DNA from: an uncultured bacterium
Lineage (GTDB): Bacteria; CSSED10-310; CALFER01
NCBI GenBank assembly: GCA_937951895.1
Contig: CALFER010000090.1
Location: 25,648 to 89,647, forward strand
Reading direction: 5' to 3'
Length of the DNA stretch: 64,000 nucleotides
Shown: positions 1 through 16,272 of the stretch, piece by piece
Layout of the letters: every line of letters begins with the position of its first letter
Position numbering within the stretch: the first letter of the stretch is position 1
Made by a program: the position numbers and the translations under genes
The notes under the pieces: model-generated
Database searches by the model: none
What the model saw: only the letters and a program-made list of their open reading frames with translations
What the model was told of the DNA's origin: nothing

Positions 1-1
1 C

Positions 2-304
2 CATACACTCAGACTCGATCAGGATCGCATGGCGTTCGATGTCGAGATCATTGTCAAGGCCGTCAGACACGGATACCGCATCCGGAATCTGGAGGTACCC
101 GTCCGCTATTTCAAGGGAAGCGAGCGTGTCACGCATTTTCGTCTGTTTCGGGACAACTGGGAGATGAGCAAGCTGCATTTCCTGTTTACCTGGGGATGCC
201 TCGTTCACTGGCCCGCCATGCTGATTCCGCGTTATGACGAGCAGTTCCGCCGACCGATGCACCGACAGCATTTCCCTATTGATTCCCGGTCGGCATCATC
301 ATAG
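2..304 (+). CDS. C-terminal fragment of a family-2 glycosyltransferase (DPM1-like); the gene starts upstream of the window
   Basis: Frame is open from the window edge. The translation ...GYRIRNLEVPVRYFKGSERVTHFRLFRDNWEMSKL resembles GT2 C-termini. The stop is at 304. Confidence 0.45.
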   Translation, partial: HTLRLDQDRMAFDVEIIVKAVRHGYRIRNLEVPVRYFKGSERVTHFRLFRDNWEMSKLHFLFTWGCLVHWPAMLIPRYDEQFRRPMHRQHFPIDSRSASS

Positions 305-357
305 CATGTTGTGCTGCTCCGGCGGCGAGACTCTCAACTACAGGAGGCACCATCCCA

Positions 358-1692
358 TTGTCCGCACTCAACCCACCCTATACCGATCGACGTGCTCTTC
401 CGATCTCGTTTTATCCGCTCCTGAGCGCTGAAGACGACGTCGATTCGGCCGCCATCGACCGCTTTACTGACTCACTCAAACAATCGGAGCCACCGGATCG
501 TTCGACGCTTTTGTACATCCACGTGCCCTTTTGCGAGTCCATATGCCGGTTCTGCGGATTCTATCGACGTCTGACGACCGATTTTGCGCCGCTCTCGCGC
601 GCCGAACTTCTCGATCGATTCACCTCGGCGCTGACCCGCGAGATCGCTTGCTGGCGCACCGTGATCGACCCGGGGGTGCATGCCATCGAGAGCATCTACA
701 TCGGAGGAGGCACCCCGAGTCTGCTCTCGTGTGCGAACATCGAAGCAATGATCGGAACCTTGCGCCGGCAGTTCGACCTGAGAGCGGATTGCGAGATCAC
801 TTTCGAAGGTGAGGTGCGCTCGATCGGCGATCCGGAGAAGCTATCCGTATTGAGGGATCTCGGTGTGACCCGTGTTTCGTTCGGTGTTCAGACTTTTCAC
901 GAATCCGTCCGGAAACTCAACGGCCTCCAACCGACTCTCGACCAGATCCGCCGCTGCGCGGACCGCGTGCGCAACGCCGGTTTCCAGGTCAACGTCGATC
1001 TGATGTACGGCCTCCCGTCACAGGATTTCGAGATCTTCATGAACGATCTGAGCATCGCCGTGCATGAACTCCGGGTATCACACATCGATCTGTACGACAC
1101 GATTCTCTACCCGAACATCGATCTCTTCACCCGGCGCGAAGTGTTTTCAGGAATGCTCCCCCCGGAGGAGGAAGGCGTTCGGATGCTGATGCGCGCAATC
1201 GAGTTCTTCCGTTCGGAGGGTTTCGTTCAACTCACGGCGGATGATTTCGTCCGGCCCGGAGCCGAGTATCGCATGAAGGATCTGATCTACGGGAGCCGCT
1301 CGGGGCATTCCCAGGTGCTCGCCATGGGACCCGCCGCCGTCGGATATCTCGGATACACGTCCTACCGGAACGAAGTTCTCGAACACTATCTGCCCTCTGA
1401 CTGGCAGCGTCCGACGATTCAGAGATTGCGCACGAGTGACGATCATGAGAAAGCCAACCGCGCGCTTATTTTTTATCCGAAGCGTCTGATGTTGAATGTG
1501 CCGGATCACTGCATCGAGCCATCACCTGAAGGCAAAGCGATTCTGGAACGTCAGATCGCCTGCGGGCTGGCGCAGCGACAGCCTGACGGGATTGTCCGGG
1601 CAACTGAACTGGGCAAACTCTGGGTCGACTCGATGTCCGCCGAATTTCTCAGCCCATCCGAAAAGCGCCGGATATTCAAACTGGTTCAGTAG
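358..1692 (+). CDS. Radical SAM enzyme of the HemN/HemW (class C) family. In this context it is more likely an acyl-chain modifying enzyme than a coproporphyrinogen oxidase.
   Basis: The CxxxCxxC motif sits in HVPFCESICRFCGFY. Length is 444 aa. TTG start with AGGAGG 9 nt upstream. It is the first gene of a translationally coupled operon. Confidence 0.8.
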   Translation: MSALNPPYTDRRALPISFYPLLSAEDDVDSAAIDRFTDSLKQSEPPDRSTLLYIHVPFCESICRFCGFYRRLTTDFAPLSRAELLDRFTSALTREIACWRTVIDPGVHAIESIYIGGGTPSLLSCANIEAMIGTLRRQFDLRADCEITFEGEVRSIGDPEKLSVLRDLGVTRVSFGVQTFHESVRKLNGLQPTLDQIRRCADRVRNAGFQVNVDLMYGLPSQDFEIFMNDLSIAVHELRVSHIDLYDTILYPNIDLFTRREVFSGMLPPEEEGVRMLMRAIEFFRSEGFVQLTADDFVRPGAEYRMKDLIYGSRSGHSQVLAMGPAAVGYLGYTSYRNEVLEHYLPSDWQRPTIQRLRTSDDHEKANRALIFYPKRLMLNVPDHCIEPSPEGKAILERQIACGLAQRQPDGIVRATELGKLWVDSMSAEFLSPSEKRRIFKLVQ

Positions 1693-1702
1693 CGGTTCCG
1701 TC

Positions 1703-3028
1703 ATGAAGATCCTTTTTGTCTATCCCCGATTCCGCAAGTTCCTCGATGACCTGTCCCCCGAGGATCGATCATTTTTCGAGCCGATCCTGGGCGGTTTCAA
1801 AACCCCGCCTTCCCTGGGCATCCCGATTCTGGCGGCGCTGACCCCCTCCCGCCACCACGTCGAACTGCTCGATGATAATCTCGGAGAATCCGTCCGATTC
1901 GATACCGACGCGGATCTGGTGGCCATCAACTGCTTTACCCCCCAGGCCACACGAGCCTTCGAGCTGGCGGATGGATTTCGCGCCGCGGGGAAACGGGTGA
2001 TCATGGGCGGCATTTTCCCTTCGGCCATGCCGGATGAGGTTCTGGAGCATGCGGACGCGGTGAATATCGGAGAGGGTGAGCCGACCTGGAGGGGGATTCT
2101 GGAGGATGCCGAACGGGGTGAACTCAAGCGACGATACCTGGGCGGGAAGGGATTCGATCTGGCGTCGATGCCGATTCCCGATCGATCTCTGTTTTATGCC
2201 AAAGCAGGTTATGATTGGCATTCCGCCCTGGTCCAGATCGCCAGGGGCTGTGGCTACAACTGCGCCATGTGCGTAATCCCCGAGCATTTCGGACACAGGA
2301 TTCGATTCCGGCCCATCGCAGACATCGTTGAGGAGATCAGGGCGCTGCCATATGACCAGATCTATCTCGCGGACGACACCCTGTTTCTGACCGACCGCCG
2401 GAGCGTGCAGTATGCGACGGATCTGTTCGCCGCGCTGGCCCCGCTGAAGAAGCGGCTGTTCCTTTCCTCGACGCTCGCGCTCAATACGGATCTCGAATTC
2501 CTCAAGCTCGCCCGGACAGCCGGTACGGAAACATTTTACTGTACCTTGAACGTCGATCCCGTTTCGATGCGGGCAATCTATCCGGAGACCCAGACGCATC
2601 GCAGGCGGCTCATCGATCTGGTACACGCCATCAAAGATCTCGGCATCCACTTCTACGCCTCGTTCGGGATCGGCCGGGACTGGGATGATGCGAGCATCAC
2701 GGAACGGATTCTGGAGTTGAGCGTGCAGGCGGGAATCGATATCGCGGAATTCTTTATTTTCTCGCCATTCCCGGGATCCGTGCAGTTCCAGCGGATGAAC
2801 TCGCAGAAACGATTGTTGCACCGCCGCTGGGAACTCTATAACGGAGCCAACGTCGTCTACCTGCCCCTGAAGATGGATCCGGATGTTCTCCAGGACGTTT
2901 TCATGCGGACCTGGCGTGAGTTTTATCGCATAAACCGCCGCGACTGGGTGCTCGAACGCATGGGAAAGCACACCTCGAAGAGTCCGCATCCCGATCATGA
3001 CGTTCCGGGCGGATTGACCCCGAGATGA
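1703..3028 (+). CDS. B12-binding domain radical SAM protein (class B radical SAM methyltransferase-like)
   Basis: The N-terminal MKILFVYPRF...GIPILAALT...VAINCFTPQ...VIMGGIFPS is a cobalamin-binding Rossmann-like domain. It is followed by the radical SAM motif ARGCGYNCAMCVIPEHFG. The track ORF 1496-3028 is an upstream extension overlapping gene 1. ATG at 1703 fits the family N-terminus. Confidence 0.8.
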   Translation: MKILFVYPRFRKFLDDLSPEDRSFFEPILGGFKTPPSLGIPILAALTPSRHHVELLDDNLGESVRFDTDADLVAINCFTPQATRAFELADGFRAAGKRVIMGGIFPSAMPDEVLEHADAVNIGEGEPTWRGILEDAERGELKRRYLGGKGFDLASMPIPDRSLFYAKAGYDWHSALVQIARGCGYNCAMCVIPEHFGHRIRFRPIADIVEEIRALPYDQIYLADDTLFLTDRRSVQYATDLFAALAPLKKRLFLSSTLALNTDLEFLKLARTAGTETFYCTLNVDPVSMRAIYPETQTHRRRLIDLVHAIKDLGIHFYASFGIGRDWDDASITERILELSVQAGIDIAEFFIFSPFPGSVQFQRMNSQKRLLHRRWELYNGANVVYLPLKMDPDVLQDVFMRTWREFYRINRRDWVLERMGKHTSKSPHPDHDVPGGLTPR

Positions 3029-5427
3029 CCGGGTACGCCCGCATCGCGATTACCGGGATCGGCGTCGTGAGCCCGATCGGATCGACAATCGACGCCTTTC
3101 TGGAATCCCTCAGCCAATCCCGCTGCGGCATTCGCCCGATGCAGGCATTCGACACCTCACCATTCCGGACAAATCTGGCCGGTGAGATTCCGGAGTTCGA
3201 TCCGCGGGATGAGTTGACGGACGACGAGATCGCCGAGTGGGGCGATCGGTATCTCTGGCTGGCGCTGTCCGCCGCACGGATGGCGATCCGGGATGCCGGT
3301 TACAGCGAGGGTTTCTCTGGAGCCCGCACGGTCGGAATCGCCGCGGGAACGTGCAACGGTGGATTACAGACCGCCGAACGGCTGTACCGGATGTTGCATG
3401 GAAACGAACCCGGGCATGTCGACGAACGGATGAACATCCTGTTCCGGTATTTTGCTCTGGGGCGCGCGCTTTCGAAGGTGTTCGCGATCGGAGGACCGGT
3501 GCATATCGTGACCACCGCGTGCGCCTCATCAACCGGCGCGCTGGGCCTGGGAGCCGACATGATCCGGTCCGGGCGCGCGGACTGCGTGCTTGCCGGAGGA
3601 GCCGATGCGTTGTGTCTGACGGCATATTCCGGTTTCAGCGGCATCAAGGCGATGGCAACCGGAATGACGACCCCATTCTCGGGCGCCGGAGAATACGGAT
3701 TGAATCTCGGCGAAGGAGCCGCCTTCTGGATTCTCGAGCACTTCGACGGGGCGATTGCGCGACAGGCGCGGATCTATGGTGAATTGCTGGATTACGGTCT
3801 TTCAGCGGATGCCTACCATGTCACGGCTCCTGATCCTCAGGGCGCAGGGACTCTGCGAGCCATGCGGTCCGCTCTGGAACGATCGGGAATCACCCCCGCG
3901 GAACTGGGATACATCAATCCGCATGGAACCGGAACCGAAGCCAACGATCGTTCGGAGTCTCGTGCAATCGAGAAACTGCTCGGTGACTCGAGTCTCACGG
4001 TACCGGTCAGTTCCTCCAAATCGTTTTTCGGACACTGTCTCGGAGCTGCGGGAATCCTGGAAGCTACGGCGTCTTTGCTCAGCATGCGAGCGGGTGTGAT
4101 CCCGCCGACGCTGAATTTTACCGACCCGAGACCAGGCTGCCGGTTGGATTATGTCCCGAATCAGGCAAGGCCGGCGCAATATCGTGCATTTCTGTCCAAC
4201 AGCATGGCATTCGGAGGCAACAATGCGGCGGTTTGCGTTAGTCTGGCCGGTGAATCTCCGCGTAACGGAACCGCGGCATCGGAGCGCAGGCGGGTCGTCA
4301 TAACGGGAACGGGAGCGGTGTCGCCGTTCGGACTGGATCCCGCCGCCCTGCTCACGGGACTCGCCACCGACCGATCAGCCATCCGCCCGATCGACCGTTT
4401 CAGCACTGACCATTGCGCATCACATCGAGCGGGTCTCGTTCCTCAGACCGATTGGAAACGTGCGGATCGCCGGATGAATCTCCAGGACCTGGAACCCCTC
4501 AGCCGCTATGCGACGTTGGCCGCCCGTCAGGCCCTCGATTCGGCGAATCTCAGGGTCACGCCCCGCAACTGTGATGCGGTCGGAATGATTCTCGGGGTCT
4601 GTGTCGGCCCGAACGAAGAAGTGCTGATGAACAGCGTCTGGGGTTCGCCCGACCACACACCGGACCTCGGGAAGTTTTCGGTCATCGTCGCCAATTCCGT
4701 CAGTGGGTGCGCATCCAAGGAACTCTTTTTGAAAGGCTATAACACCGTGCTTTCACCGGGGCATCACGCAGGCATGGCCGCGCTGATCCAGACCCAGGAC
4801 GCCATCGAACTCGGCCATTGCAACTCGATCGTCTGCGGGGCGAGTGATGAACTGTTTGCACGATACTTCTATAATTATGACACGGTGGGGTATCTGGCCC
4901 GTGCCTGCGATGAAATCCGATATGGCGAAGTGCTTCTTCCGGCCCGTCAGCGGGTTCTGGGAGAGGGGGCCGCTGCGCTGCTCGTGGAATCGCATGCGAC
5001 CGCCATCGAGAGCGGGCATGCGATTCTGGCCGAGATTCTCGGATCAGGCATGATCCACGACCCCGGACCGCTGCTCGAAGGCTGTCAATCCGAAGCCGGC
5101 CTTCTCGCCGCCATCGAAATCGCGTATGCACGCTCCGGTGTCGACCCGCGGCGCACGCAGTGCATCCTGCGCGCCCCTCAGGGGAATGCGGATGACCGAT
5201 TCGAACTCGGTGCAATCGAGCACTTTTTCGATCGATTTGGTGTTCATCCCTCCCGGCGCACGACTGTATTCCAAACCGGGTATGCCGAATCGGTTTCCGT
5301 ATTGTTCAACGTGGTGGCTATGTTGAACGGCTGGCGGGACGAGGCCATGCGCCTGCCGGGACACGTTCTGGTAACGGCATCGACGCTGATGGGGTACCAT
5401 TACGCGATGATCATGGAGGTTTTGTGA
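3025..5427 (+). CDS. Tandem ketosynthase didomain protein: N-terminal FabF-like KS with a full Cys-His-His triad, fused to a second KS-fold domain lacking the His motifs (CLF-like)
   Basis: Domain 1 has ITGIGVVSPIG, TACASS (active Cys), INPHGTGTEANDRSE and SSSKSFFGHCLGAAG. Domain 2 restarts with VVITGTGAVSPFG, has ANSVSGCASKELFLKG, but no HGTGT/GHxxGAAG motifs. The ATGA overlap with the upstream gene indicates translational coupling. Confidence 0.8.
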   Translation: MTGYARIAITGIGVVSPIGSTIDAFLESLSQSRCGIRPMQAFDTSPFRTNLAGEIPEFDPRDELTDDEIAEWGDRYLWLALSAARMAIRDAGYSEGFSGARTVGIAAGTCNGGLQTAERLYRMLHGNEPGHVDERMNILFRYFALGRALSKVFAIGGPVHIVTTACASSTGALGLGADMIRSGRADCVLAGGADALCLTAYSGFSGIKAMATGMTTPFSGAGEYGLNLGEGAAFWILEHFDGAIARQARIYGELLDYGLSADAYHVTAPDPQGAGTLRAMRSALERSGITPAELGYINPHGTGTEANDRSESRAIEKLLGDSSLTVPVSSSKSFFGHCLGAAGILEATASLLSMRAGVIPPTLNFTDPRPGCRLDYVPNQARPAQYRAFLSNSMAFGGNNAAVCVSLAGESPRNGTAASERRRVVITGTGAVSPFGLDPAALLTGLATDRSAIRPIDRFSTDHCASHRAGLVPQTDWKRADRRMNLQDLEPLSRYATLAARQALDSANLRVTPRNCDAVGMILGVCVGPNEEVLMNSVWGSPDHTPDLGKFSVIVANSVSGCASKELFLKGYNTVLSPGHHAGMAALIQTQDAIELGHCNSIVCGASDELFARYFYNYDTVGYLARACDEIRYGEVLLPARQRVLGEGAAALLVESHATAIESGHAILAEILGSGMIHDPGPLLEGCQSEAGLLAAIEIAYARSGVDPRRTQCILRAPQGNADDRFELGAIEHFFDRFGVHPSRRTTVFQTGYAESVSVLFNVVAMLNGWRDEAMRLPGHVLVTASTLMGYHYAMIMEVL

Positions 5428-7679
5428 AAGGGACGGCGGAGGTTCTGGTCACCGGGATCGGTATCGTATCCCCGATCGGAAATTCGGTTTCGGCCTTTCT
5501 GAACGCGTTGAAATCATCGAAATCCGGCATCCGTCCGATCGATCTCTTCGATGTAGCTCAGTTCAGGTCACATGTGTATGCACCGGCACATATCGAAACC
5601 TTGCCGGAACTCTCGGATCCCCCTGACACGGCGACCTGGGACCGGCATCTCCAGCTCGGCTATTTCGCTCTCAGGGATGCCCTGCGCGATGCCTCGATCG
5701 ACCGCGATCGCATTCCTGCACGAACCGGTCTGGTCTGTGCAACATGTTCCGGTCCGATGCTGACGATTGAAGCCGAGTATCTTCAGACGCCGATCGTACC
5801 GGGAGCGGGGGCGCGAACGGAATCCGTGTATCGGGATTACCGGCGGTATTACTCGATGGAGCGGACTCTCGTTCGCGTTTTCGGCATTCGTGGATTTTCG
5901 ACCACGGTTGTGACGGCGTGCGCCGCGAGCAGCAATGCGATCGGGCTGGGAGCCGATCTGATCGCCGAGGGCATTCTCGATCAAGTGTTCGTGGTCGGTT
6001 CGGATGCCTTTTCACCGTCGACGTTTGCCGGGTTCGATTTTCTGAAAGCCACCTGCATATCGGAATGTGCGCCGTTTTCGGACCCCGCCGGCATGAATCT
6101 GGGAGAAGGCGCCGGGGCCTGGGTGCTTGAAAACGGTGAGGTCGCCCGGCGACGGGGATCGAGGATCAGGGGACGGGTTCTGGGGTATGGCCTGAGCAAT
6201 GATGCCTACCATGCGACCGCGCCGGATCCGCAGGGCGAGGGGGCGATACTTGCGATGACCCGAGCCATGCATGATGCGGCGATCGACCCGGCATCCATCG
6301 GATACATCAACGCACACGGCACAGGAACGCTTCCGAATGACAGGACGGAATCGAGAGCGATCACGCGCGTGTTCTCCGATCGGACACCACCTCCGGTCAG
6401 TTCCTCAAAATCGTTCTTCGGTCATGCACTCGGTGCTGCAGGGATTCTTGAAGCATCCGCATCGCTGCTCATGATGAATGATGGCCTGCTGCCTCCGACA
6501 TTGCGATTCACGACCGCCCGGGAGGGTTGCGGACTGGATTACGTGCCGAATACGCCTCGCAAGACGGATGCCGGAGTGTTCTTGTCGAATAACTTCGCGT
6601 TTGCCGGCAATAACTCGGCGCTCTTGGTTGGAACAGTCGGGTGCGAAACCTCTTCCGCACGGGAATCGATGCCCAATGAAGTGGTGATCACGGGTTACAG
6701 CAGTCTGATGCCGGACGACACACGTGATCCGGCCGATCCGCGATCGTACACGTTCGACCTCGCGCGACTGGCACAGATGGATCGCCGTTTGCCCCTGAAG
6801 GAGATGGATGTGTCCAGTCAACTCGCGACACTGGCATCGAAGCGCGCGGTCCAGCATGCCGGATTATCGTTGAAGCCGCCGGATGCCAGGCAGATCGGCA
6901 TGATTCTTGGCCTCTGTGACGGTCCGAATCGCGGAGAAGCGGCGCATCTCAGGAGCATCGCGGTTTCCGGCCTGTCCGCTCCGAATCTCGTCATGTTTCC
7001 CTACATCGTCCTGAATTCGGTTGCCGGACAATGCTCGCGAGCATTGGGACTCAAAGGGTTTTCGTCGACTCTCTGCGGAGCCCCCGGTGCGGGGCTCCAT
7101 GCACTGATCTATGCCGCACTCGCAATCCGGCGCGGGCATGCGTCGATCTGTCTGGCATGCGGAGTCGATGAACGCCAGGAGTCGTATGTGTATGTGGATG
7201 AGAGTTCACATGCGGATGCCGGAATCGAGGATCGGCCTGTCAGTGACGGGGCGGCGTGCCTGGTTCTGGAGTCCGCCGGGTCCGCTCATGCGCGTCAGGC
7301 GAACGTCCTGGGCCGTTGGTTGAGCGGGTCGAGTTCCAATCTGGGGCCGGATCGATCCGAGGTGAACATCGGGCGTGAATGGGAGAGGTTCATTGAAGAA
7401 CTGGGCATCCCCCGCCGATCGATCGCAGGGATCGTGGTCGATGCCGATTATGGCATCGACGCGAAACGGATCGAGGAAGTGGCCCGGCGGTTTTCCTCCT
7501 CGACCGGAGCGAGGATTATCAGCGGAACGGAAGCCGGAAGCGCCCGTTCGTTGTCTTCCGGAGCACTCCGCAACATCTCGATCGCGCTGCAGATCCCGAA
7601 CTGTTCGGGGAAAACAGTCCTGACCGCCTACCTGTCGTCACTCGGACAACTCGGACTGATTGCGCTGCGGATCGAATAA
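5424..7679 (+). CDS. Second tandem KS/CLF-like didomain protein, paralogous to 3025-5427
   Basis: Domain 1 has VTGIGIVSPIG, TACAASSNAIGLGAD, INAHGTGTLPNDRTE and SSSKSFFGHALGAAG. Domain 2 has VVITGYSS...LNSVAGQCSRALGLKG without the His motifs. GTG start in a GTGA overlap, GGAGG 4 nt upstream. Confidence 0.8.
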   Translation: MKGTAEVLVTGIGIVSPIGNSVSAFLNALKSSKSGIRPIDLFDVAQFRSHVYAPAHIETLPELSDPPDTATWDRHLQLGYFALRDALRDASIDRDRIPARTGLVCATCSGPMLTIEAEYLQTPIVPGAGARTESVYRDYRRYYSMERTLVRVFGIRGFSTTVVTACAASSNAIGLGADLIAEGILDQVFVVGSDAFSPSTFAGFDFLKATCISECAPFSDPAGMNLGEGAGAWVLENGEVARRRGSRIRGRVLGYGLSNDAYHATAPDPQGEGAILAMTRAMHDAAIDPASIGYINAHGTGTLPNDRTESRAITRVFSDRTPPPVSSSKSFFGHALGAAGILEASASLLMMNDGLLPPTLRFTTAREGCGLDYVPNTPRKTDAGVFLSNNFAFAGNNSALLVGTVGCETSSARESMPNEVVITGYSSLMPDDTRDPADPRSYTFDLARLAQMDRRLPLKEMDVSSQLATLASKRAVQHAGLSLKPPDARQIGMILGLCDGPNRGEAAHLRSIAVSGLSAPNLVMFPYIVLNSVAGQCSRALGLKGFSSTLCGAPGAGLHALIYAALAIRRGHASICLACGVDERQESYVYVDESSHADAGIEDRPVSDGAACLVLESAGSAHARQANVLGRWLSGSSSNLGPDRSEVNIGREWERFIEELGIPRRSIAGIVVDADYGIDAKRIEEVARRFSSSTGARIISGTEAGSARSLSSGALRNISIALQIPNCSGKTVLTAYLSSLGQLGLIALRIE

Positions 7680-7798
7680 CCCGTAACGATCTCGATTCCA
7701 TAACCCGAAAAACGTTCTTGGAAATTGTGTCTCTATTTGCTAAACATATCTCTTCTATCGACCATCCAATCCAGTCAGGAAGGAAGAATCGCAATAGA

Positions 7799-8119
7799 AT
7801 GAATGCGTCAATCGAAAACAGAATAGCGACCCGGTCGGCAGTGATTTCCCGTGTCAAACGCGATCTGATCCAGAGGCTGTCACTTTCTTATACCGAAGAG
7901 GATCTGCATGAAGATGCATCGCTCATCGGCTCCGGTCTCGGACTCGATTCACTCGATGCGCTCGAAATCATTCTCGGGATCGAACAGGAATTCAGGGTCA
8001 AGATCGAGGAAGGCAACATTTCCGTGTTGCGCTCCATCAATACGATCGTCGACTATATTCTCGAAAATCAAACACACCCGGCCGCGTCGGCGCAGGTCAC
8101 GGAAGGAGGCACACGATGA
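7799..8119 (+). CDS. Acyl carrier protein
   Basis: The phosphopantetheine-site motif LGLDSLDALEI is present. About 106 aa if started at ATG 7799, which has AGGAAGGA upstream. The track ORF starts earlier at 7718. Confidence 0.75.
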   Translation: MNASIENRIATRSAVISRVKRDLIQRLSLSYTEEDLHEDASLIGSGLGLDSLDALEIILGIEQEFRVKIEEGNISVLRSINTIVDYILENQTHPAASAQVTEGGTR

Positions 8120-9231
8120 CGTACAGGTCTCCCCTGCATGACCTCTCAGTATCACGAAATGCCGTGCTGACGTCGCGGGACGGATTCACCGCGGTCTCGC
8201 GTTATCGCCCGCTGGAAGACGAGTATCGCACCATACGAGAAGCCGTCGGAATGACCGATTTTTCGCATTTCCAGAAGTTCTGTTTCCGGGGTGAGGAGGC
8301 GCTGTATTTTCTGGACGAGATTCTGCCTGCGAACATCGCCAACATCCGCTACGGCCGCGTCATCCACACGTTTCTCGCAGATGACGATGGGAACCTGTTG
8401 AGCGATGTGTATGTGGCGAATCAGGACGATACGATCTGGATGATCTGCGAGAGTTGCGTTGAAACCGCCGTCATCGAACAGCGGCTGGCTGCTGCGAATA
8501 GCCACCGAATTCCTTACGACCACCTGACCGACTCGTTTGCGGCATTCTCGATCGACGGACCGCAGGCCTGGGCGGTGGCGCGTGAGATGTTCGGCCCGGA
8601 TGTGCTGGGGATGCCCTACCTGTCCGTCGAACTGCACGATGAAAGCGGCGATGGCATCGTGCTGCTGCGCACAGGCAAAACCAGTGAGTTCGGATACCTG
8701 ATGCTGGTGCCGGTCGCGCGTTGCAGGGATGTCTACGAGCGTCTGCTGGCTCTGACAGAGACCCGGAGCGGGGCGGCATGCGGGATCGATGTGTTCGACA
8801 TCCTCAAGCTCGATGGTCGTTTCTTCAACATCAACCAGGAAGGGCGGATCGTCCGCGATCCTCTCACGCTGGGACTGCAATGGATGATCGACTTTCAGAA
8901 GGATACGTATCACGGCAAGTCAGCGATCGACAGGCGGCGTGAATCCGGATTGACTCGGAAGATCATCGGTTTGAAAGCACTCGCAGCGGGAACGCCGATG
9001 AATCGTGATACACGGATCGTTTCAGGTGAAGAAACAGTGGCTGAGGTCGTCACCGTGGGCTACTCGCAGGCACTGGACACCCAGATGGCGCTGGCATTGT
9101 TCGACATCCGTTATGCCTATTCCGGACTGGAGTTCATCGCGCAGACCGAGACTGGAAACGTGCCGGTGCAGACGGTATCGCTTCCTCCGTTCATCCCCCG
9201 GAGCCTCACGATCAAACTCGATGAGATGTAG
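8116..9231 (+). CDS. GcvT-fold (aminomethyltransferase / YgfZ-like) folate-binding family protein
   Basis: 371 aa. Overall resemblance to glycine-cleavage T-protein family proteins, for example the N-terminal ...IREAVGMTDFSHFQKFCFRGEEALYFLDEIL. ATGA overlap with the ACP stop. Confidence 0.55.
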   Translation: MTYRSPLHDLSVSRNAVLTSRDGFTAVSRYRPLEDEYRTIREAVGMTDFSHFQKFCFRGEEALYFLDEILPANIANIRYGRVIHTFLADDDGNLLSDVYVANQDDTIWMICESCVETAVIEQRLAAANSHRIPYDHLTDSFAAFSIDGPQAWAVAREMFGPDVLGMPYLSVELHDESGDGIVLLRTGKTSEFGYLMLVPVARCRDVYERLLALTETRSGAACGIDVFDILKLDGRFFNINQEGRIVRDPLTLGLQWMIDFQKDTYHGKSAIDRRRESGLTRKIIGLKALAAGTPMNRDTRIVSGEETVAEVVTVGYSQALDTQMALALFDIRYAYSGLEFIAQTETGNVPVQTVSLPPFIPRSLTIKLDEM

Positions 9232-9237
9232 TCGGGC

Positions 9238-9675
9238 ATGAAACGGGAGATCCGCGGATCGATCGATATCCGGGTCGAGTTTCGTGATGTGGATATGCTC
9301 GGAGTCGCGCACAACTCGGTTTATTTTCTTTGGTTCGAGCGCGGGAGACTTGCTCTGCTCGAATCGATCATTCCCTTTCAAACCGCATTGGATCAGCAGA
9401 TCGCTCTGATCGTCGTGCGGCAAACCTGTGAGTACCATGCTCCGGCGCTCCTCGGAGATGATCTGATCCTGACGACACGTACCGATCTGTCTGATGCCTA
9501 TGGCGGCCGCATTCGATGCGCGCATACGCTTTCCAATCGTCGAACCCTGATCGAGATTGCCTCGGGGGAAACGGATCTGACCATGTGGAACATCGAATCA
9601 CGCAAGCTGATACGCGAGATACCCGATTTCATCCGGACTCGGATCCGGGATCTCCTGCATGGAGTGACGTCATGA
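9238..9675 (+). CDS. Hotdog-fold acyl-CoA/acyl-ACP thioesterase (4HBT/YbgC-like)
   Basis: 145 aa. [30 protein letters not shown] is typical of 4HBT thioesterases. Its stop overlaps the fabG-like start (ATGA). Confidence 0.6.
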
Positions 9676-10418
9676 GCACGTTGCTGGAAGGCAAAACCGT
9701 CATTGTGACGGGAGGAACGCGAGGAATCGGACGGGCGATTGTCGAATGCCTGCATCGTGAAGGGGCCCGGGTCTGGTTCACGTACATCCGGAGCGATGCC
9801 ATCGCCGCCGAGATGCAGCAGTCGCTTGACGGTGTCCGCTCGTTCCGGATCGACGGAACCGATCGATCCGCGATCGCGGCGTGTCTGGACGAATGCCAGT
9901 CGACGTGCGGCGCCCCCGACGTCCTCGTCAACAATGCGGGCGTGACCAGCAACATGTTCTTCCCGATGATGAATTCCGAAGAGTGGAACAGGGTCATCGC
10001 AGCGAATCTCACCACCGTGTTCAACTGGACGAGGGAAACGATCCGGCCGATGTTGATCGCGCGGAAAGGATCGATCATCAACATTGCCTCCGTGTCGGGC
10101 GTCTTCGGAGTCTCGGGTCAGTCGGCCTACAGTGCCTCCAAAGGAGCGATGCTGGCGTTTACCCGGACCATCGCCGCTGAAACGGCATCGAAAGGCATCC
10201 GAGTCAATGGAATCGTGCCTGGATTCATCGACACGGAGATGACGGCGAAGATACCGAAACCGCTTCGGATGAAATACCTCGAACGCATCAGCATGCAACG
10301 GTTCGGGACACCGGATGAAGTCGCATCGGTCGTTCTGTTTCTGGCCTCGGATCTCTCATCGTATATCACCGGTCAGACCATCATCGTCGATGGCGGTTTG
10401 ACGGCGACCTTCAACTGA
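9672..10418 (+). CDS. fabG: 3-oxoacyl-ACP reductase (SDR, FabG-like)
   Basis: [23 protein letters not shown] contains the NAD(P)-binding motif. The catalytic-region motifs ...SVSG...YSASKGA are present. The track ORF 9516 is an upstream extension. Confidence 0.8.
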
Positions 10419-10419
10419 G

Positions 10420-11352
10420 ATGAAAACGGCGTTTCTGTTTCCCGGACAGGGTTCGCAGTTTGTCGGCATGGGTCGCGATCTCGTCCGATCATCCCCCTCC
10501 GCACTTGCGCTTTTCGAACGCGCGTCCGAGATTTCCGGAATCGATATCGCCGCTGCGTGTGTTCGCGGCCCCCTGTCGCGATTGTCCCGGACCGATGTGC
10601 TTCAGCCGTGCATCACAACCGTCAACCTCGCGGTACTCGAAGAACTCACCGCAAGGGGCGTCCGAGCGGAAGCGGCGGCCGGCCATTCGCTGGGTGAGTT
10701 TTCCGCATGTGTGGCCTCGGGTGTATTCCCGGCGGACACCGCCATCGAATTGACAACCCGCCGCGGACATCTGATGCACGAAGCGTCCATATCGACGCCG
10801 GGAACCATGGCTGCCGTCATCGGTTTACCGGCCGATCGGATCGAGTCCCTGATCAGCGTTCGCTGCGATCCGTTGCTGGTGGCCGCGAATTTCAATGCAC
10901 CGGATCAGACGGTCGTATCGGGACCGCGCGCGGCCATTGACTCACTTTCCGCTTCGATACGTGACGAAGGCGGTCGAATCGTCTTTCTTCAGGTTTCAGG
11001 TGCCTGGCACTCTCCGGCTATGAATTCCGCCGCAGATCTCTGGAAAGATGCGGTCGATCGAGTTCCGATCCGTCCTCCGGCGATCGATCTTTACATGAAT
11101 GTATCGGGTTGCGCCGAGTCCGACCCGTCCGCGATACGCCGATGCATGGAATCCCAGTTGGTCCGTCCTGTTCGCTGGACGACGATCCTGACGCACATGT
11201 ATCGATCCGGTGTTCGCCGGTTCCTGGAAATCGGCCCCGGAACGGTTCTCAGGCAACTGCTCCGCGCCAATCCTTTCCCGCCCGAAAGTTACACCGTGCA
11301 CTCCGTCGCTGATATCAGAAGCATCGATAATCTCCTTGCCCACTCCCCCTGA
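10420..11352 (+). CDS. fabD: Malonyl-CoA:ACP transacylase (FabD-like)
   Basis: MKTAFLFPGQGSQFVGMG and GHSLGEFSA (active-site Ser) are present. 310 aa. Confidence 0.85.
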   Translation: MKTAFLFPGQGSQFVGMGRDLVRSSPSALALFERASEISGIDIAAACVRGPLSRLSRTDVLQPCITTVNLAVLEELTARGVRAEAAAGHSLGEFSACVASGVFPADTAIELTTRRGHLMHEASISTPGTMAAVIGLPADRIESLISVRCDPLLVAANFNAPDQTVVSGPRAAIDSLSASIRDEGGRIVFLQVSGAWHSPAMNSAADLWKDAVDRVPIRPPAIDLYMNVSGCAESDPSAIRRCMESQLVRPVRWTTILTHMYRSGVRRFLEIGPGTVLRQLLRANPFPPESYTVHSVADIRSIDNLLAHSP

Positions 11353-11384
11353 ACATTCTATTCTCATAAGGAATTGCCGAGGAG

Positions 11385-12860
11385 GTGACGATGACGCTCC
11401 GACTTGCCGTTCCCTGTATTGTTGTGCTCTTGTTTGCGATTCCGTCGAGTCTGTCGACCCCGCCGCAACCGTATGAATTCGATTACGGCCAGAGTCGCCC
11501 GGGGGGACTCGATCGGACTTTTGATCATAACAGGACTCCGACGATCGATCATGTGAGGGAATGGGAGCAGATCTGCCTTTTCCTGGATCGATGGCAGGTC
11601 AGCGATCCGACCGACCCCGAATTCGGAGGCATGATCGAAGATGAGTATCGAACGGGTGCGGATCGGATCGTCGAATCCGACAACACGCAGGAGGCGATTT
11701 TCGCCTGGTGCCGGTACATGGAACTGACGGGATCGACGCAATTCGATCAGAATGTCACCGACGCCTGGACCTACCTCACGGTATTCCCGGCCTGGCTGGA
11801 AGAACCCGTTCACTATGCTCTCTGGAATTGCGCGTGGGGCATTCAGGCTCACAGACAGTATCAAAAAACCTACGCATCGGATGCGCACCGCGCTTACGCA
11901 GACCAGTGCGCCGAATTCATTCTCACGCATGATCTTTCTTTCCAGGGCACTCCGCCGCAGGTGGGCTACCGGAACGTGTTCATCACAGCCTGGGCTGCCT
12001 ATCATCTCCATCTGTTTGCCTCGGAAGCACCGGATCCGGATCTGATTATCCGCGCGGAAAACATGGCAACCCGCGTCAGGGATTGGCTGGCCGAGGATCC
12101 GGCGAACATTCTGAAAACCGGATGGGCGCTGTCGGGGGGTGCGGCTGCGGCCGCGGTGATCCATGTGCTGTATCATGACGATCCCGAAGGAGCGTTGGCG
12201 TACTATGAAGCGAATCTGCTGGACATGCCTCTGTACTTCGATCCGGCCGATTTCAATCCCTCCTCGTGGATCCACGCCTGGGACAGTTTTCTTGCACTCG
12301 CCCAGAACACCCTCTGGCGCGTCACACAGCGGTTTGAATTCCGCTTGAATGCGCTCGAACAATCCGAATTCATGCGATCGCACGATGGGGACGGCGACGG
12401 AGGGATTCCTCCGAATCCTTCGATGTCGGACACCGAGGATCACACCTGGGTATCGACCTACATCACGGTGATGGGATTCGATATGCTGGATGAACCGTCT
12501 CGGGTCAGTCTTTCGATGCCGGACTCATCGCTTGCAGCCGGTGATCGCATGGAGGCGGGAATCCAGGTTGTCGCTCCGGGATTGGATCGAACTGCCGACC
12601 TGTATCTCGTTCTCGAAATCGCCAACCAGTTTCTGTTCTTCCCGCAGTTCACGGACCAACCCGAAGCCATACGGCTTGTTTGCCCGATCGGGTACGATCT
12701 CGCGGCAGCTCTCGGTTTCCAGGACACCATCCCCTTCCTGACAATTGATCCGTGGCCGTCAGCCGGCTCATTTTCGGCCACCTGGTGGGCCGCATTGATC
12801 GACCCGGCCACATCTGAATTGATCGGTGATCTCATTACCCTGCCGTGGGCCTCGGAATGA
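11385..12860 (+). CDS. Secreted hypothetical protein (signal peptide), function unknown
   Basis: Hydrophobic N-terminus MTMTLRLAVPCIVVLLFAIPSS. GGAGG RBS. No recognisable catalytic motif. Confidence 0.5.
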   Translation: MTMTLRLAVPCIVVLLFAIPSSLSTPPQPYEFDYGQSRPGGLDRTFDHNRTPTIDHVREWEQICLFLDRWQVSDPTDPEFGGMIEDEYRTGADRIVESDNTQEAIFAWCRYMELTGSTQFDQNVTDAWTYLTVFPAWLEEPVHYALWNCAWGIQAHRQYQKTYASDAHRAYADQCAEFILTHDLSFQGTPPQVGYRNVFITAWAAYHLHLFASEAPDPDLIIRAENMATRVRDWLAEDPANILKTGWALSGGAAAAAVIHVLYHDDPEGALAYYEANLLDMPLYFDPADFNPSSWIHAWDSFLALAQNTLWRVTQRFEFRLNALEQSEFMRSHDGDGDGGIPPNPSMSDTEDHTWVSTYITVMGFDMLDEPSRVSLSMPDSSLAAGDRMEAGIQVVAPGLDRTADLYLVLEIANQFLFFPQFTDQPEAIRLVCPIGYDLAAALGFQDTIPFLTIDPWPSAGSFSATWWAALIDPATSELIGDLITLPWASE

Positions 12861-12895
12861 GCCCGGCTCACCTGACGAACAGGAGCGGCGCTGCG

Positions 12896-14242
12896 ATGAA
12901 CGAATCCAGACGGACACTGATAGAAAACGCACGGATCTGGGCGGGACCCGGATCGGAAATAGAACACGGTGCGATTGCTTTCGAGGGGAACCGATTCATC
13001 GATCCGGCAACAGCCAGGGACGATCCGGGCAGCATTCGGAGAGACGGGAGCAATCTCCTCCACATGCCGGGCTTCGTGAACGCGCACGGCCATCTTTACA
13101 GTGCGCTCGCCCGAGGCATGCCGGCACCTCCCCGGCAAGCCGGAAACTTCGCGCAGATTCTGGAATACATCTGGTGGAGGCTGGACAAGGCACTGGACCC
13201 GGAATCCCTATTGATGAGTGCATACACCGGGATTATGGACAGCATCCGCTCCGGGGTGACCACGATCTTCGATCATCATGCGAGCCCTCGTGCCATCGAC
13301 GGCAGTCTTTCCGTAATTGCGTCGGCACTCAAGGATATCGGGATGCGGGGAGATCTCTGTTACGAAGTTTCGGATCGCGACGGAACAGCCGCGGCCCGGG
13401 CTGGAATCCGGGAGAACGAACGGCACCTCGAGTCGCTCAGACAACATCCCGATCCGCTTCTGGCCGGCCATTTCGGCCTGCACGCTCTGTTCACGCTTTC
13501 AGACGAGACACTGAAGGAATCGGTTCAGGCGGCGGAGAAACTCGGAACGGGGTTTCATGTTCATGTGGCGGAGGGTCCGGAGGATGTGGAACTCTCTCAG
13601 ACCCGTCACGGCATGGGGCTAATCCCGAGAATGCTGAAACACGACATGCTCAGACCCGATACATTGCTGATCCATGGCGTGCATCTGACTTCGGATGATC
13701 TGGCGACGCTTGCCCGCCACCCGGTCACGCTCGTGCACAATCCCCAGTCCAATCAGAACAATGCGGTCGGATTCTGCGATATCACAGCCGTTCATGATGC
13801 CGGAGTCAATCTGGCACTCGGGAACGATGGAATCGGAGGAGCGATCCTCCCCGAGCTTCGTGCGGCGGTGTTTGCAGGACACCATGCCGCCCGGTCACCG
13901 GGCAGGCCTTCCTGGGCGCTCCCGTTCTCGATGCTCATGCACGCCAACACTACCCTTGCAACAAAGGCGTTCGGCATCCCGATCGGAAGAATTGAGCCGG
14001 GATATGCCGCGGATTTCATCACGGTCGACTACATCCCTCCGACACCCTGGACCATAGACAACACCATCGGTCATTTCCTGTTCGGATTGTGTGAACGGCT
14101 TCGGGTGCATGACGTCTGGGTGAACGGCACTCAGGTTTTAGGCGGCGGACGGTTCATCCGGATCGACGAGGATCAGATCGCGGAGCGAAGCCGGGCGGCC
14201 GCGACAGCAGTATGGGAAAAACTCTCCGCCGATCGATTGTAA
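12896..14242 (+). CDS. ssnA: SsnA-family aminohydrolase (amidohydrolase superfamily)
   Basis: HMPGFVNAHGHLYSALARGM...ILEYIWWRLDKALDPESL...IFDHHASP closely parallels E. coli SsnA (PGIVCSHNHFYSGLSRG...WWRLDRALDEESL...IDHHASP). ATG 12896 has an AGGAG RBS. The track ORF starts at GTG 12845. Confidence 0.75.
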   Translation: MNESRRTLIENARIWAGPGSEIEHGAIAFEGNRFIDPATARDDPGSIRRDGSNLLHMPGFVNAHGHLYSALARGMPAPPRQAGNFAQILEYIWWRLDKALDPESLLMSAYTGIMDSIRSGVTTIFDHHASPRAIDGSLSVIASALKDIGMRGDLCYEVSDRDGTAAARAGIRENERHLESLRQHPDPLLAGHFGLHALFTLSDETLKESVQAAEKLGTGFHVHVAEGPEDVELSQTRHGMGLIPRMLKHDMLRPDTLLIHGVHLTSDDLATLARHPVTLVHNPQSNQNNAVGFCDITAVHDAGVNLALGNDGIGGAILPELRAAVFAGHHAARSPGRPSWALPFSMLMHANTTLATKAFGIPIGRIEPGYAADFITVDYIPPTPWTIDNTIGHFLFGLCERLRVHDVWVNGTQVLGGGRFIRIDEDQIAERSRAAATAVWEKLSADRL

Positions 14243-15186: not shown

Positions 15187-16272
15187 ATGACTGATCCCGG
15201 AAAATCAGCAGAGCACCGAGAGTGCGGCAGGCCGCTGCGGATCATCTTTTTGTCGGATACCCATCTGGGATTCGACGATCCGGTCTCACCTCGCGTCCAT
15301 CGCAGGCGCCGGGGACCGGATTTCATGAAATCGTTTCTCGCTGTTCTGACCCGTGCCCGACAGACACGACCGGCTCTCATTGTGCACGGAGGTGATGTGT
15401 TTTTCCGCAGCAGGGTCCCGGCGAGTCTGGTGGAGGTTGCGTTCGGTCATCTGAAGCGGGTCGCCGAGCAGGGTATTCCGATACTGATCGTCCCGGGTAA
15501 TCATGAACGCGGAGCGATTCCGAGGGGGTTGCTGGCGATTCATCCCGGGATTCACATCTTCGATCGGCCGAGAACGGTTACGATCGAGACCGACGGGATT
15601 CGGGTGGCGCTGGGAGGCTTCCCGAATGTGCGGGGTGATATCCGGGGACGTTTCCCCGGCCTGTATCGGGAGACTGGATTGTCGGTGACCCGCGCGGATT
15701 ATCGGTTCCTGTGCATCCACCAGGCGGTGGATCACGCGGTGGTCGGCTCCGGACGATATCGCTTTCTGAATCGCCCTGATGTGGTCGATGAGCGCAGCAT
15801 CCCGGATGGGATCGACGCCGTTCTGTCCGGACACATTCATCCTCATCAGGTCTTGCTTCCAGACGCCTTCCGAGGCGGCTTGCGTGTCCCCGTGATCTAC
15901 TCGGGGTCCACCGAACGGACTTCATTTGCCGAGGAAAATGAGACCAAGGGGTATGTTGAAATCGGAATATCCGGTCCCGGAGCGCGTTCGGATCGTGCAA
16001 TCCGCTGGCGATTTCAGCCGCTCGACACGCGACCCATGCGCACCATCCGGATCGATTGCGCGGGAACCCCGCCGGAAGCCGGTCGGATCATGGACATCAT
16101 GAAACAGAGACTGGCTCAACTGCATCCGGATTCCATCGTGAGAATCCGTCTCGATCACATCCCCGGAGACACGCTGGCCGCGATTACCGCCACCCGCATT
16201 CGATCGCTCGGGTTCGACTCCATGAACATCACTCTCGCGGTTCACCCAGAATCGTATACAGAAATCGCTTGA
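15187..16272 (+). CDS. Calcineurin-like metallophosphoesterase (SbcD/Mre11-like nuclease family)
   Basis: Contains the IIFLSDTHLG ... GDVF ... GNHE motifs. Confidence 0.7.
   Translation: MTDPGKSAEHRECGRPLRIIFLSDTHLGFDDPVSPRVHRRRRGPDFMKSFLAVLTRARQTRPALIVHGGDVFFRSRVPASLVEVAFGHLKRVAEQGIPILIVPGNHERGAIPRGLLAIHPGIHIFDRPRTVTIETDGIRVALGGFPNVRGDIRGRFPGLYRETGLSVTRADYRFLCIHQAVDHAVVGSGRYRFLNRPDVVDERSIPDGIDAVLSGHIHPHQVLLPDAFRGGLRVPVIYSGSTERTSFAEENETKGYVEIGISGPGARSDRAIRWRFQPLDTRPMRTIRIDCAGTPPEAGRIMDIMKQRLAQLHPDSIVRIRLDHIPGDTLAAITATRIRSLGFDSMNITLAVHPESYTEIA

Follow-up and report, generated by a model that had tools for sequence, protein, structure and literature searches.

Fatty acid synthase (FAS) clusters that contain radical S-adenosylmethionine (SAM) enzymes, hereafter rSAM enzymes, have been described in anammox bacteria and deltaproteobacteria (Rattray et al. 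2009, PMC2649909). The anammox Cluster I (KustE3603-3608) encodes an acyl carrier protein (ACP), termed amxACP, together with amxFabZ, the pair amxFabF2/amxFabFmut, a phytoene-desaturase-like protein and a B12-binding rSAM enzyme (B12-rSAM). The amxFabF2/amxFabFmut heterodimer of Brocadia fulgida (PDB 9S5H) is the pair resembling a ketosynthase (KS) and a chain-length factor (CLF) in the candidate ladderane cluster, and amxFabF2 in complex with this CLF-like partner decarboxylates malonyl-ACP (Granatino et al., bioRxiv 10.64898/2026.05.19.726425). A study of the Cariaco Basin reported unexplained antiSMASH “ladderane” biosynthetic gene clusters (BGCs) in Desulfobacterota, Fibrobacterota, Myxococcota and Verrucomicrobiota (PMC9902471). 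Here we describe one biosynthetic operon with some 12 genes, encoded by an uncultured bacterium and located at the beginning of a 64,000-nt stretch of contig CALFER010000090.1 (the window), which resembles both Cluster I and the “ladderane-like” BGCs of non-anammox phyla (PMC2649909, PMC9902471, bioRxiv 10.64898/2026.05.19.726425). The cluster is not unique: a conserved cassette at its core is widespread, and the HemN-bearing form is a rare variant of it. With moderate confidence, we propose that the operon assembles a specialised lipid or polyketide-like acyl chain on its own ACP and alkylates it at carbon, with class B and class C rSAM enzymes and a homologue of the glycine cleavage T-protein working on the ACP arm.

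Like Cluster I, the window cluster combines a dedicated ACP, a KS with an inactive CLF-like partner, a hot-dog dehydratase (DH) and a cobalamin-type rSAM enzyme, and in both the product chemistry is putative. It differs from Cluster I in its fused KS–CLF proteins, a B12-rSAM outside the family TIGR04072 and the lack of a phytoene-desaturase-like gene. Moreover, it adds a HemN-like rSAM enzyme, a GcvT-like protein, a ketoreductase (KR), a malonyl-CoA:ACP transacylase (MAT), a thioesterase (TE) and a family 2 glycosyltransferase (GT2), and its host is not an anammox planctomycete.

Two other types of clusters share part of this gene content. The jawsamycin system consists of the iterative type I polyketide synthase Jaw4, the HemN-like cyclopropanase Jaw5 and the KR Jaw6. 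Enzymes of class C transfer SAM-CH2• to sp2 carbons, and the substrates of Jaw5 are ACP-tethered α,β-unsaturated (enoyl) thioesters (PMC10114718, PMC13459092). Similarly, the window cluster encodes a HemN-like, putative class C rSAM enzyme along with KS, KR and ACP machinery, and its HemN-like gene lies beside a dehydratase that would make a Jaw5-type substrate. By contrast, the window proteins are of type II, either discrete or fused as KS–CLF, and are accompanied by a class B rSAM enzyme and a GcvT-like protein; the likeness to Jaw5 is drawn from gene content and context. The aryl polyene (APE) clusters are composed of the KS–CLF pair ApeC/O, the DHs ApeI/P, the KR ApeQ, the TE ApeK and the GT2 ApeJ. 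The window cluster likewise possesses an ApeI-like DH, KS–CLF logic, a KR, a 4HBT thioesterase and a GT2, and has no enoyl reductase, whereas it lacks the aryl-starter ligase, the export or acyltransferase genes and the SAM O/C-methyltransferase, and has rSAM and folate-type enzymes instead.

Organization of the operon

The list of open reading frames (ORFs), combined with inspection of start sites, revealed nine same-strand genes between positions 358 and 11352 (Table 1). These are the genes of the initial annotation, and searches against Pfam and NCBIfam upheld every domain that had been assigned to them. The dedicated ACP-based acyl assembly system proposed there was also supported, with its own MAT, ACP, KR, thioesterase and KS domains. 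It is distinct from a housekeeping type II FAS, as the fabF equivalog cut-off is missed and both an enoyl reductase and a FabH-type initiator are absent.

The nine genes had been described as a chain of overlaps, which holds for four of the eight junctions. These are 4-bp overlaps, ATGA at 3025, 8116 and 9672 and GTGA at 5424, whereas the remaining junctions are gaps of 10, 119 (before the ACP gene), 6 and 1 nt in gene order. No terminator-like site was found within the intergenic gaps of the cluster. An Rfam search of window positions 1-13000, which include the 119-nt gap, and of the upstream part of the operon on a second contig (L001) found no cobalamin, SAM, tetrahydrofolate or glycine riboswitch.

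Contig L001, which is identical to positions 1-3884 of the window, extends the view upstream and shows that the operon does not start at position 358, as had been assumed. The HemN-like gene is preceded by the genes of an ApeI-like DH and a GT2, which overlap by ATGA. A promoter-like site (TTGACT-17-TATCTT) lies ahead of the DH gene, with a divergent aminotransferase gene on the other side. The order of the operon is ApeI-like DH, GT2, HemN-like rSAM, B12-rSAM, KS–CLF, KS–CLF, ACP, GcvT-like, TE, KR and MAT, and the gene of a secreted 489-aa protein is probably its last member. The reported lack of a dehydratase is therefore true of the nine genes but not of the whole operon, whereas the reported lack of an enoyl reductase stands: neither an enoyl reductase nor a ketosynthase III (KSIII) is encoded among the operon genes or their immediate neighbours.

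The operon is tightly packed and has a GC content of 58%, except for the AT-rich 119-nt gap between KS–CLF 2 and ACP. The cluster of a 46%-identical relative, GCA_053939005.1, is split precisely at this gap into two loci (L003 and L090). The gap may be an internal promoter or a module boundary.

A core cassette conserved across phyla

A metagenome scan with the GcvT-like protein yielded 209 confirmed stretches, and 80 loci were mapped by tblastn; the cassette counts given in this text rest on these. A core cassette of B12-rSAM, KS–CLF, KS–CLF, ACP, GcvT-like, thioesterase, KR and MAT genes recurs in the metagenomes. Its named carriers, all metagenome-assembled genomes (MAGs), belong to Fibrobacter sp., Chitinivibrionales, Verrucomicrobiota, “Deltaproteobacteria”, Myxococcota and Polyangia. 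The same gene order in dozens of independent metagenome contigs indicates that the arrangement is more than chance.

Upstream of the GcvT-like gene, the ACP gene is its immediate neighbour in 67 of the 68 metagenome loci, a B12-rSAM more than 45% identical to that of the window is found in 24 of 32 loci and two KS–CLF genes in 17 of 32, whereas a HemN-like gene is found in none of the 32. Downstream, TE, KR and MAT genes are present in 24, 31 and 32 of 37 loci, respectively. The neighbourhood of B12-rSAM and KS–CLF recurs across phyla, with the HemN-bearing form being rarer. The core cassette also lacks the ApeI-like DH and the GT2. L086, a relative with 71% identity, shows full synteny over 11 genes. 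Some genomes have the five-gene set ACP–GcvT–TE–KR–MAT at a distance from the KS genes. As the genes upstream of such loci are unrelated (FGE-sulfatase, CsgG-like and others), these cassettes are just separated from their KS genes.

In 9-11 of the 36 long loci, the cassette is followed by a convergent trio of genes, which encode a PlsC-type acyltransferase, a FabA-like dehydratase and an FMN-reductase/flavodoxin-like protein with a C-terminal SCP2 domain. The trio suggests a lipid as the destination, and may include an electron donor for the rSAM enzymes.

The system is real, coherent and uncharacterised, with its HemN-bearing form being rarer, and its core form more widespread, than could be read from the window. 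In agreement with the initial annotation, no characterised pathway in the family libraries or the literature searched matches this gene set. The literature searched contained no description of the cassette, and returned only unrelated papers on the sponge swf cluster, imidacins and coelulatin. The phyla with reported “ladderane” BGCs overlap the phyla carrying the core cassette (PMC9902471).

Table 1. Coordinates of the operon genes and of other features mentioned in the text
Feature	Locus	Coordinates	Strand	Basis or remark
ApeI-like DH gene	L001	8806-9156		upstream of the window
GT2 gene, complete	L001	9153-9947		upstream part of the operon
GT2 glycosyltransferase, 3' end, polyprenyl-phosphate / ApeJ-like type	window	1..304	+	gene start outside window
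HemN/ChuW-like (class C type) radical SAM, 444 aa	window	358..1692	+	Pfam Radical_SAM, NCBIfam
B12-binding (class B type) radical SAM, 441 aa	window	1703..3028	+	Pfam B12-binding + Radical_SAM
KS–CLF fusion 1, 800 aa	window	3025..5427	+	ketoacyl-synt + Ketoacyl-synt_C
KS–CLF fusion 2, 751 aa	window	5424..7679	+	Pfam/NCBIfam, domain alignment
AT-rich gap, 119 nt	window	7680-7798		between KS–CLF 2 and ACP
Dedicated ACP, 106 aa, DSL motif	window	7799..8119	+	PP-binding
GcvT-like (T-protein fold) folate-type enzyme, 371 aa	window	8116..9231	+	GCV_T + GCV_T_C
Hot-dog (4HBT/YbgC-type) thioesterase, 145 aa	window	9238..9675	+	4HBT_2
FabG-type 3-ketoacyl-ACP reductase (KR), 248 aa	window	9672..10418	+	adh_short_C2, NF009466
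FabD-type malonyl-CoA:ACP transacylase (MAT), 310 aa	window	10420..11352	+	Acyl_transf_1, TIGR00128
Conserved secreted-type protein, 489 aa, signal-peptide-like N-terminus	window	11391..12860	+	follows MAT in related loci
SsnA-like aminohydrolase	window	12896-14242	+	directly after the cluster
AMP-binding acyl-CoA-synthetase-like gene and overlapping 553-aa ORF	window	16229-19548	-	convergent to the cluster
PlsC-type acyltransferase–GNAT fusion, 605 aa	window	25213-27030	-	Acetyltransf_5
rSAM::KS::CLF triple fusion	L092	3617-7378		Fibrobacter sp. MAG
Convergent trio, example	L097	13375-16141	-	
Convergent trio, example	L098	15384-15851	-	
FeeM-type synthase–aminotransferase fusion	L113	15529-17352		downstream of the cassette
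Cluster of ~17 kb	L004/L005/L007	3000-20400		Desulfobacteraceae bacterium SURF_4
ACP-based cluster with B12-rSAM relative	L173	7400-21356		Dehalobacterium formicoaceticum

KS–CLF fusions and the B12-binding rSAM enzyme

Alignment of the four KS-like domains showed that both N-domains keep the Cys/His/His residues (TACASS, HGTGT and GH), whereas both C-domains have none of the three, with His in one and Pro in the other at the position of the active-site Cys. The two proteins, initially taken for two elongating ketosynthase pairs, are therefore covalently fused KS–CLF units rather than four elongating synthases, each joining an intact KS to a homologous partner without the triad. In KS–CLF 1, the N-domain is by its residues a predicted active ketosynthase and the C-domain a predicted inactive, chain-length-factor-like domain. 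The two didomains score 466.5 and 355.1 bits against TIGR03150 (fabF), compared to a cut-off of 493.75. Among solved structures, both KS N-domains are most similar to chain B of 9S5H (amxFabF2), with 289 and 230 bits, respectively, compared to 267 and 228 bits for the best canonical FabF. No particular closeness to amxFabFmut was seen for the CLF domain.

The B12-rSAM has an N-terminal B12-binding domain (PF02310, 39.0 bits; cut-off 32.1) followed by an rSAM core (PF04055, 29.7 bits; cut-off 29.5) with the CxxxCxxC motif in the form GCGYNCAMC, which assigns it to the class B (cobalamin-dependent) rSAM enzymes. Of the NCBIfam models, TIGR04013 scores 69.8 bits. TIGR04072 (rSAM_ladder_B12) gives only a partial match of 51.1 bits, far below its cut-off of 360, which places the protein outside that family. 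No other protein of the cassette is as conserved, and the family of the B12-rSAM has 773 members at E ≤ 1e-30, with more distant relatives in MAGs of Spirochaetes.

In 22 of the 24 loci with a B12-rSAM gene, this gene and KS–CLF form one in-frame fusion, and the fused versions in other phyla are 55-58% identical to the stand-alone protein of the window. The resulting rSAM::KS::CLF triple fusion is a single polypeptide of ~1250 aa, as seen in a Fibrobacter sp. MAG (L092) and in metagenome loci such as L095, L097 and L113; no description of this architecture was found in the literature searched. As the B12-rSAM is so often fused to KS–CLF, it is likely to act on a KS- or ACP-bound chain.

A 42%-identical relative of the B12-rSAM is encoded by the cultured anaerobe Dehalobacterium formicoaceticum, in a different ACP-based cluster that also contains a MAT, an aldehyde:ferredoxin oxidoreductase, two crotonase-fold proteins, a 4HBT thioesterase, a KSIII, a second B12-rSAM, a 3-hydroxyacyl-CoA dehydrogenase, a KS and two FMN reductases. 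For B12-rSAM/ACP chemistry, D. formicoaceticum is a possible cultivable model.

ACP and the GcvT-like protein

The ACP is recognised by the PP-binding domain (31.2 bits) and has a DSL motif, with the ACP family models scoring below their cut-offs. Its best PDB match, 6LVT, is the ACP of Thermotoga maritima, and we rejected the notion of an anammox-like ACP.

The GcvT-like protein matches GCV_T (125.4 bits) and GCV_T_C (26.2 bits). It scores 137 and 119.6 bits against the GcvT models, well below their cut-offs of 300 and 235.85, and its neighbours in nearly all loci are ACP, TE, KR and MAT genes, so that it does not belong to the glycine cleavage T-proteins proper. Structural comparison of its AlphaFold2 model (pLDDT 91) revealed a close resemblance to true T-proteins (PDB 1YX2, 1WOS and 1WOO), with TM-scores of 0.85-0.87, compared to poorer fits to DmdA (0.81), LigM (0.69) and YgfZ (0.62). 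The best matches include T-proteins that were crystallised with H-protein. Asp97, which aligns with the catalytic Asp96 of Thermotoga maritima (Tm) T-protein, is invariant in the subfamily. The three-domain T-protein fold of the model and this Asp place the protein in the GcvT-fold superfamily of folate-binding proteins, and it may itself bind folate. The subfamily is tight, with a mean column identity of 60% and an invariant C-terminus, SMPPIMPKSLTVKLDEM.

Compared to a T-/H-protein pair, the fold and the catalytic Asp are shared, and the gene immediately follows that of a small carrier with a swinging thiol arm. However, the carrier is a phosphopantetheinyl ACP and not a lipoyl H-protein, genes of P- and L-proteins are absent, and one arginine of the folate site is replaced.

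The HemN-like rSAM enzyme

The HemN-like gene has a TTG start codon with an AGGAGG ribosome-binding site ahead of it. Radical_SAM (PF04055, 68.6 bits) is the sole Pfam domain of its product, which lacks HemN_C. Among the NCBIfam models, ChuW/HutW (TIGR04107) scores best with 199.8 bits, followed by HemW with 152 and HemN with 142, all below their cut-offs of 400, 205.4 and 324.95, respectively. The protein therefore belongs neither to HemN/HemW, given the missing HemN_C domain, nor to ChuW/HutW, given its KS/ACP neighbours. ChuW/HutW, the class C methyltransferases of anaerobic heme degradation, are nevertheless the best-scoring curated family and match over the full length; the score reaches only half of the cut-off, and the genomic context is always one of KS/ACP genes, without any for heme uptake or heme utilisation. 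Its PDB matches include HemN (1OLT, the best with 118 bits) and NocN. The CxxxCxxC motif is present, with C59, C63 and C66 invariant throughout the subfamily, whereas the RNFQGY region of HemN is not conserved. With the HemN-like core and the CxxxCxxC motif retained, and the residues of the second SAM site compared in part, the protein is a candidate class C methylase.

The subfamily is small, with ~28 clusters above 33% identity among 5.8 billion proteins. In all contexts read, the HemN-like gene is set among KS/CLF, ACP and B12-rSAM genes, namely in the lineage of the window (L001, L086), GCA_053939005.1 (L003), a Desulfobacteraceae MAG (L004/5/7), a Polyangiaceae MAG (L006) and the loci L087, L088 and L089; the protein of L087 clusters with one from a Chloroflexota MAG. 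It always adjoins a hot-dog dehydratase gene, in the order DH-GT2-HemN or HemN-DH, the former being common to L086 and L003. The HemN/ChuW-like enzyme is a rare add-on to the core cassette. A genome scan with the HemN-like alignment was too generic, as 78 of the 80 loci were of the ordinary HemW/ChuW type and the genome of the window itself was not recovered; the relevant loci came only from Polyangiaceae and Desulfobacteraceae MAGs.

The HemN-like genes of Desulfobacteraceae bacterium SURF_4 and of the Polyangiaceae MAG lie in a larger cluster of ~17 kb, which encodes three HemN-like and two B12-binding rSAM enzymes, five KS/CLF proteins, an ACP, a KR, an acyl-ACP thioesterase, ApeI-like and MaoC dehydratases and a ferredoxin. 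This larger cluster probably corresponds to the Desulfotalea type treated in Rattray et al. 2009.

Other enzymes and the secreted protein

The thioesterase matches 4HBT_2 (49.5 bits) and scores 52.2 bits against YbgC/FadM (cut-off 68.7), and its position in the cassette is conserved. The KR has the TGxxxGIG and YxxxK motifs, and matches adh_short_C2 (215 bits) and the FabG subfamily NF009466 (239.7 bits), the latter above the cut-off of 222. The MAT has the GHSLG motif, and matches Acyl_transf_1 (146.5 bits) and fabD (251.1 bits; cut-off 260.9). The dehydratase has an ApeI-like/FabA Pfam match and its best PDB match is 6qsr, which we take to be from the APE cluster of Xenorhabdus. The GT2 matches Glycos_transf_2 (70.7 bits).

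The 489-aa protein matches neither Pfam nor NCBIfam families. Proteins 44-71% identical to it are encoded after the MAT in L086, L090, L093 and L094, and it is probably an accessory member of the HemN-bearing form. Its family has 155 representatives among 1.84 billion proteins (relatives P0367-P0516). Longer members (~890 aa) end in sorting domains of the type IX secretion system (T9SS), and others carry NlpC/P60 or chitobiase domains, which suggests that the family is an extracellular helical enzyme domain. A structure model from the single sequence (pLDDT 45) was too poor for a fold search.

A proposed pathway

Starting from what was computed, namely the domain identities, the catalytic motifs, the operon structure, the conservation of the cassette, the B12-rSAM fusion and the adjacency of ACP to GcvT-like and of HemN-like to dehydratase genes, we infer all the chemical steps of the following scheme. 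MAT would load malonate onto the ACP. A KS–CLF unit might then prime the chain by decarboxylation of malonyl-ACP, as in the anammox amxFabF heterodimer, after which the two KS–CLF units would extend it. The KR would give a β-hydroxy intermediate and the ApeI-like DH an enoyl intermediate, and as an enoyl reductase is lacking, the chain should stay hydroxylated or unsaturated. Following the Jaw5 paradigm, the HemN/ChuW-like enzyme could add a SAM-derived one-carbon unit to an sp2 carbon of the enoyl-ACP, leading to a methyl branch or a cyclopropane. The B12-rSAM might cooperate with KS–CLF 1 on the tethered chain, either to methylate an unactivated carbon or for another radical C–C step. The GcvT-like protein may dock onto the ACP arm as the T-protein does onto the H-protein, exchanging a one-carbon unit with tetrahydrofolate. 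Finally, the thioesterase would release the acid, and the GT2 and the secreted protein might act on a carrier lipid or an envelope destination. Carbon alkylation of the ACP-bound chain, as proposed in the initial annotation, is a reasonable hypothesis.

Several observations weigh against this scheme. The cassette has no member with a described product, intermediate or activity, and its relatives have been seen only in MAGs or metagenomes. As the HemN-like protein reaches none of the curated family cut-offs, its reaction type is a prediction, and B12-rSAM enzymes also catalyse chemistry other than methylation. One folate-site arginine of the T-protein (Tm R227) is replaced by Phe or His in the GcvT-like family, whose role here is entirely conjectural. 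Moreover, two transcription units are conceivable, given the AT-rich gap ahead of ACP and the split in GCA_053939005.1, and neither a phosphopantetheinyl transferase nor an exporter gene was found within the cluster.

The fusion of B12-rSAM to KS–CLF and the coupling of ACP to a T-protein homologue serve as hints to function in a cassette that is widespread, with hundreds of protein clusters besides the confirmed metagenome stretches. Because no closer relative of the structurally characterised amxFabF2 was found than its KS, the cassette possibly offers an easier experimental route to the cooperation of B12-rSAM with KS/CLF. It could explain “ladderane-like” BGC calls outside the anammox bacteria, and is possibly behind orphan lipids with branches or rings in anoxic sediments and peat. 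A bolder version of the scheme, which we regard as rather unlikely, is an undescribed mode of decorating ACP-bound chains, in which the phosphopantetheine arm would serve the T-protein homologue as an “H-protein”, allowing it to move folate one-carbon units onto or off a tethered intermediate. The KS-fused cobalamin rSAM enzyme and, in the HemN-bearing form, the class C rSAM enzyme, the latter acting on the enoyl chain, would then build branched or strained-ring lipids, such as those with cyclopropane- or ladderane-like rings, in uncultured anaerobes of several phyla. If so, the cassette would be an accessible and widespread cousin of the anammox ladderane machinery.

Alternative explanations

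The cluster might specify a variant of an APE/flexirubin-type pigment, with a polyene made by KS–CLF, KR and ApeI-like DH, released by an ApeK-like TE, anchored by an ApeJ-like GT2 and tailored by the rSAM enzymes. The shared architecture set out above, the ApeI-like Pfam match of the DH with 6qsr as its best PDB match, and a score of 207 bits against the flexirubin short-chain dehydrogenase/reductase model FlxB are consistent with this, as are two loci of HemN relatives (L087 and L088) with genes for an LpxL-type acyltransferase, an AMP-ligase and a KSIII, in the manner of APE clusters. However, the FlxB score is below the cut-off of 340, and no aryl-starter adenylating enzyme, lysophospholipid acyltransferase (LPLAT) or LolA/MMPL export gene is encoded in or beside the operon, which sets it apart from APE clusters. 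Furthermore, the KS domains score only ~156 bits against 6qsp, which we take to be an APE KS entry, compared to 267-289 bits against FabF and amxFabF2, and the widespread core dispenses with the ApeI-like DH and the GT2 altogether. An APE-type pigment thus appears improbable.

Just as improbable is HemN-type chemistry, the oxidative decarboxylation of a carboxylate side chain to a vinyl group, which would turn the released acid into a terminal alkene under anaerobic conditions; or else the product would be a small diffusible acid or cofactor-like compound and not a membrane lipid. HemN itself is the best solved-structure match of the HemN-like protein, and a hydrolytic thioesterase is present. 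A system that lacks an enoyl reductase and has just two KS–CLF units might make a short chain, and the ACP–GcvT–TE–KR–MAT set often occurs alone with no KS genes nearby. By contrast, the best family match is the methyl-transferring class C family ChuW/HutW and not HemN, the RNFQGY region is not conserved, and the HemN-like gene travels with the dehydratase rather than the thioesterase; a fate as lipid would also agree better with the PlsC-type acyltransferase and SCP2 genes that recur nearby.

Less probable still is a pathway to ladderane-type (cyclobutane) or other strained-ring lipids that is related to anammox Cluster I. It would fit the amxFabF2 matches of both KS domains, the common logic of ACP, KS/CLF, hot-dog DH and B12-rSAM (bioRxiv 10.64898/2026.05.19.726425) and the phyla in which antiSMASH calls “ladderane” BGCs, which are those with the core cassette (PMC9902471). 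Nevertheless, the margin of amxFabF2 over ordinary FabF is small and its CLF-like partner finds no special counterpart in the CLF domain; the B12-rSAM falls far short of the TIGR04072 cut-off, and the phytoene-desaturase-like gene is missing.

A chance adjacency of housekeeping hemN/hemW and gcvT genes to a fab operon, as public annotations of relatives as “coproporphyrinogen III oxidase” and “glycine cleavage system T protein” might suggest and as the initial annotation had raised against itself for the heme genes, can be set aside as extremely unlikely as far as comparative genomics allows, because all three proteins miss the curated family cut-offs and the neighbourhood is conserved across phyla, including gene fusions, with HemN-like genes always among KS/ACP genes, B12-rSAM mostly fused to KS–CLF, junctions translationally coupled, and no gcvH, gcvP or heme genes nearby or in the rest of the window.

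Neighbouring genes

Downstream of the cassette in L113 and three other loci lies a gene that fuses an FeeM-type N-acyl amino acid synthase (GNAT) to a class I/II aminotransferase (alpha-oxoamine-synthase-like), a hint of amino-acid-linked lipids in some carriers. In the window itself, the cluster is directly followed by the gene of an SsnA-like aminohydrolase (NF005540, 434.7 bits; cut-off 444), which is probably unrelated to it, and then by those of an EamA transporter and a metallophosphoesterase. The remaining genes of the window are ordinary, including purD/purH and the genes of pyruvate phosphate dikinase and tetratricopeptide repeat proteins. Convergent to the cluster are an AMP-binding acyl-CoA-synthetase-like gene and an overlapping ORF without Pfam match. 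Further downstream, a PlsC-type acyltransferase–GNAT fusion has the same architecture as the bifunctional OlsF-type ornithine-lipid synthases.

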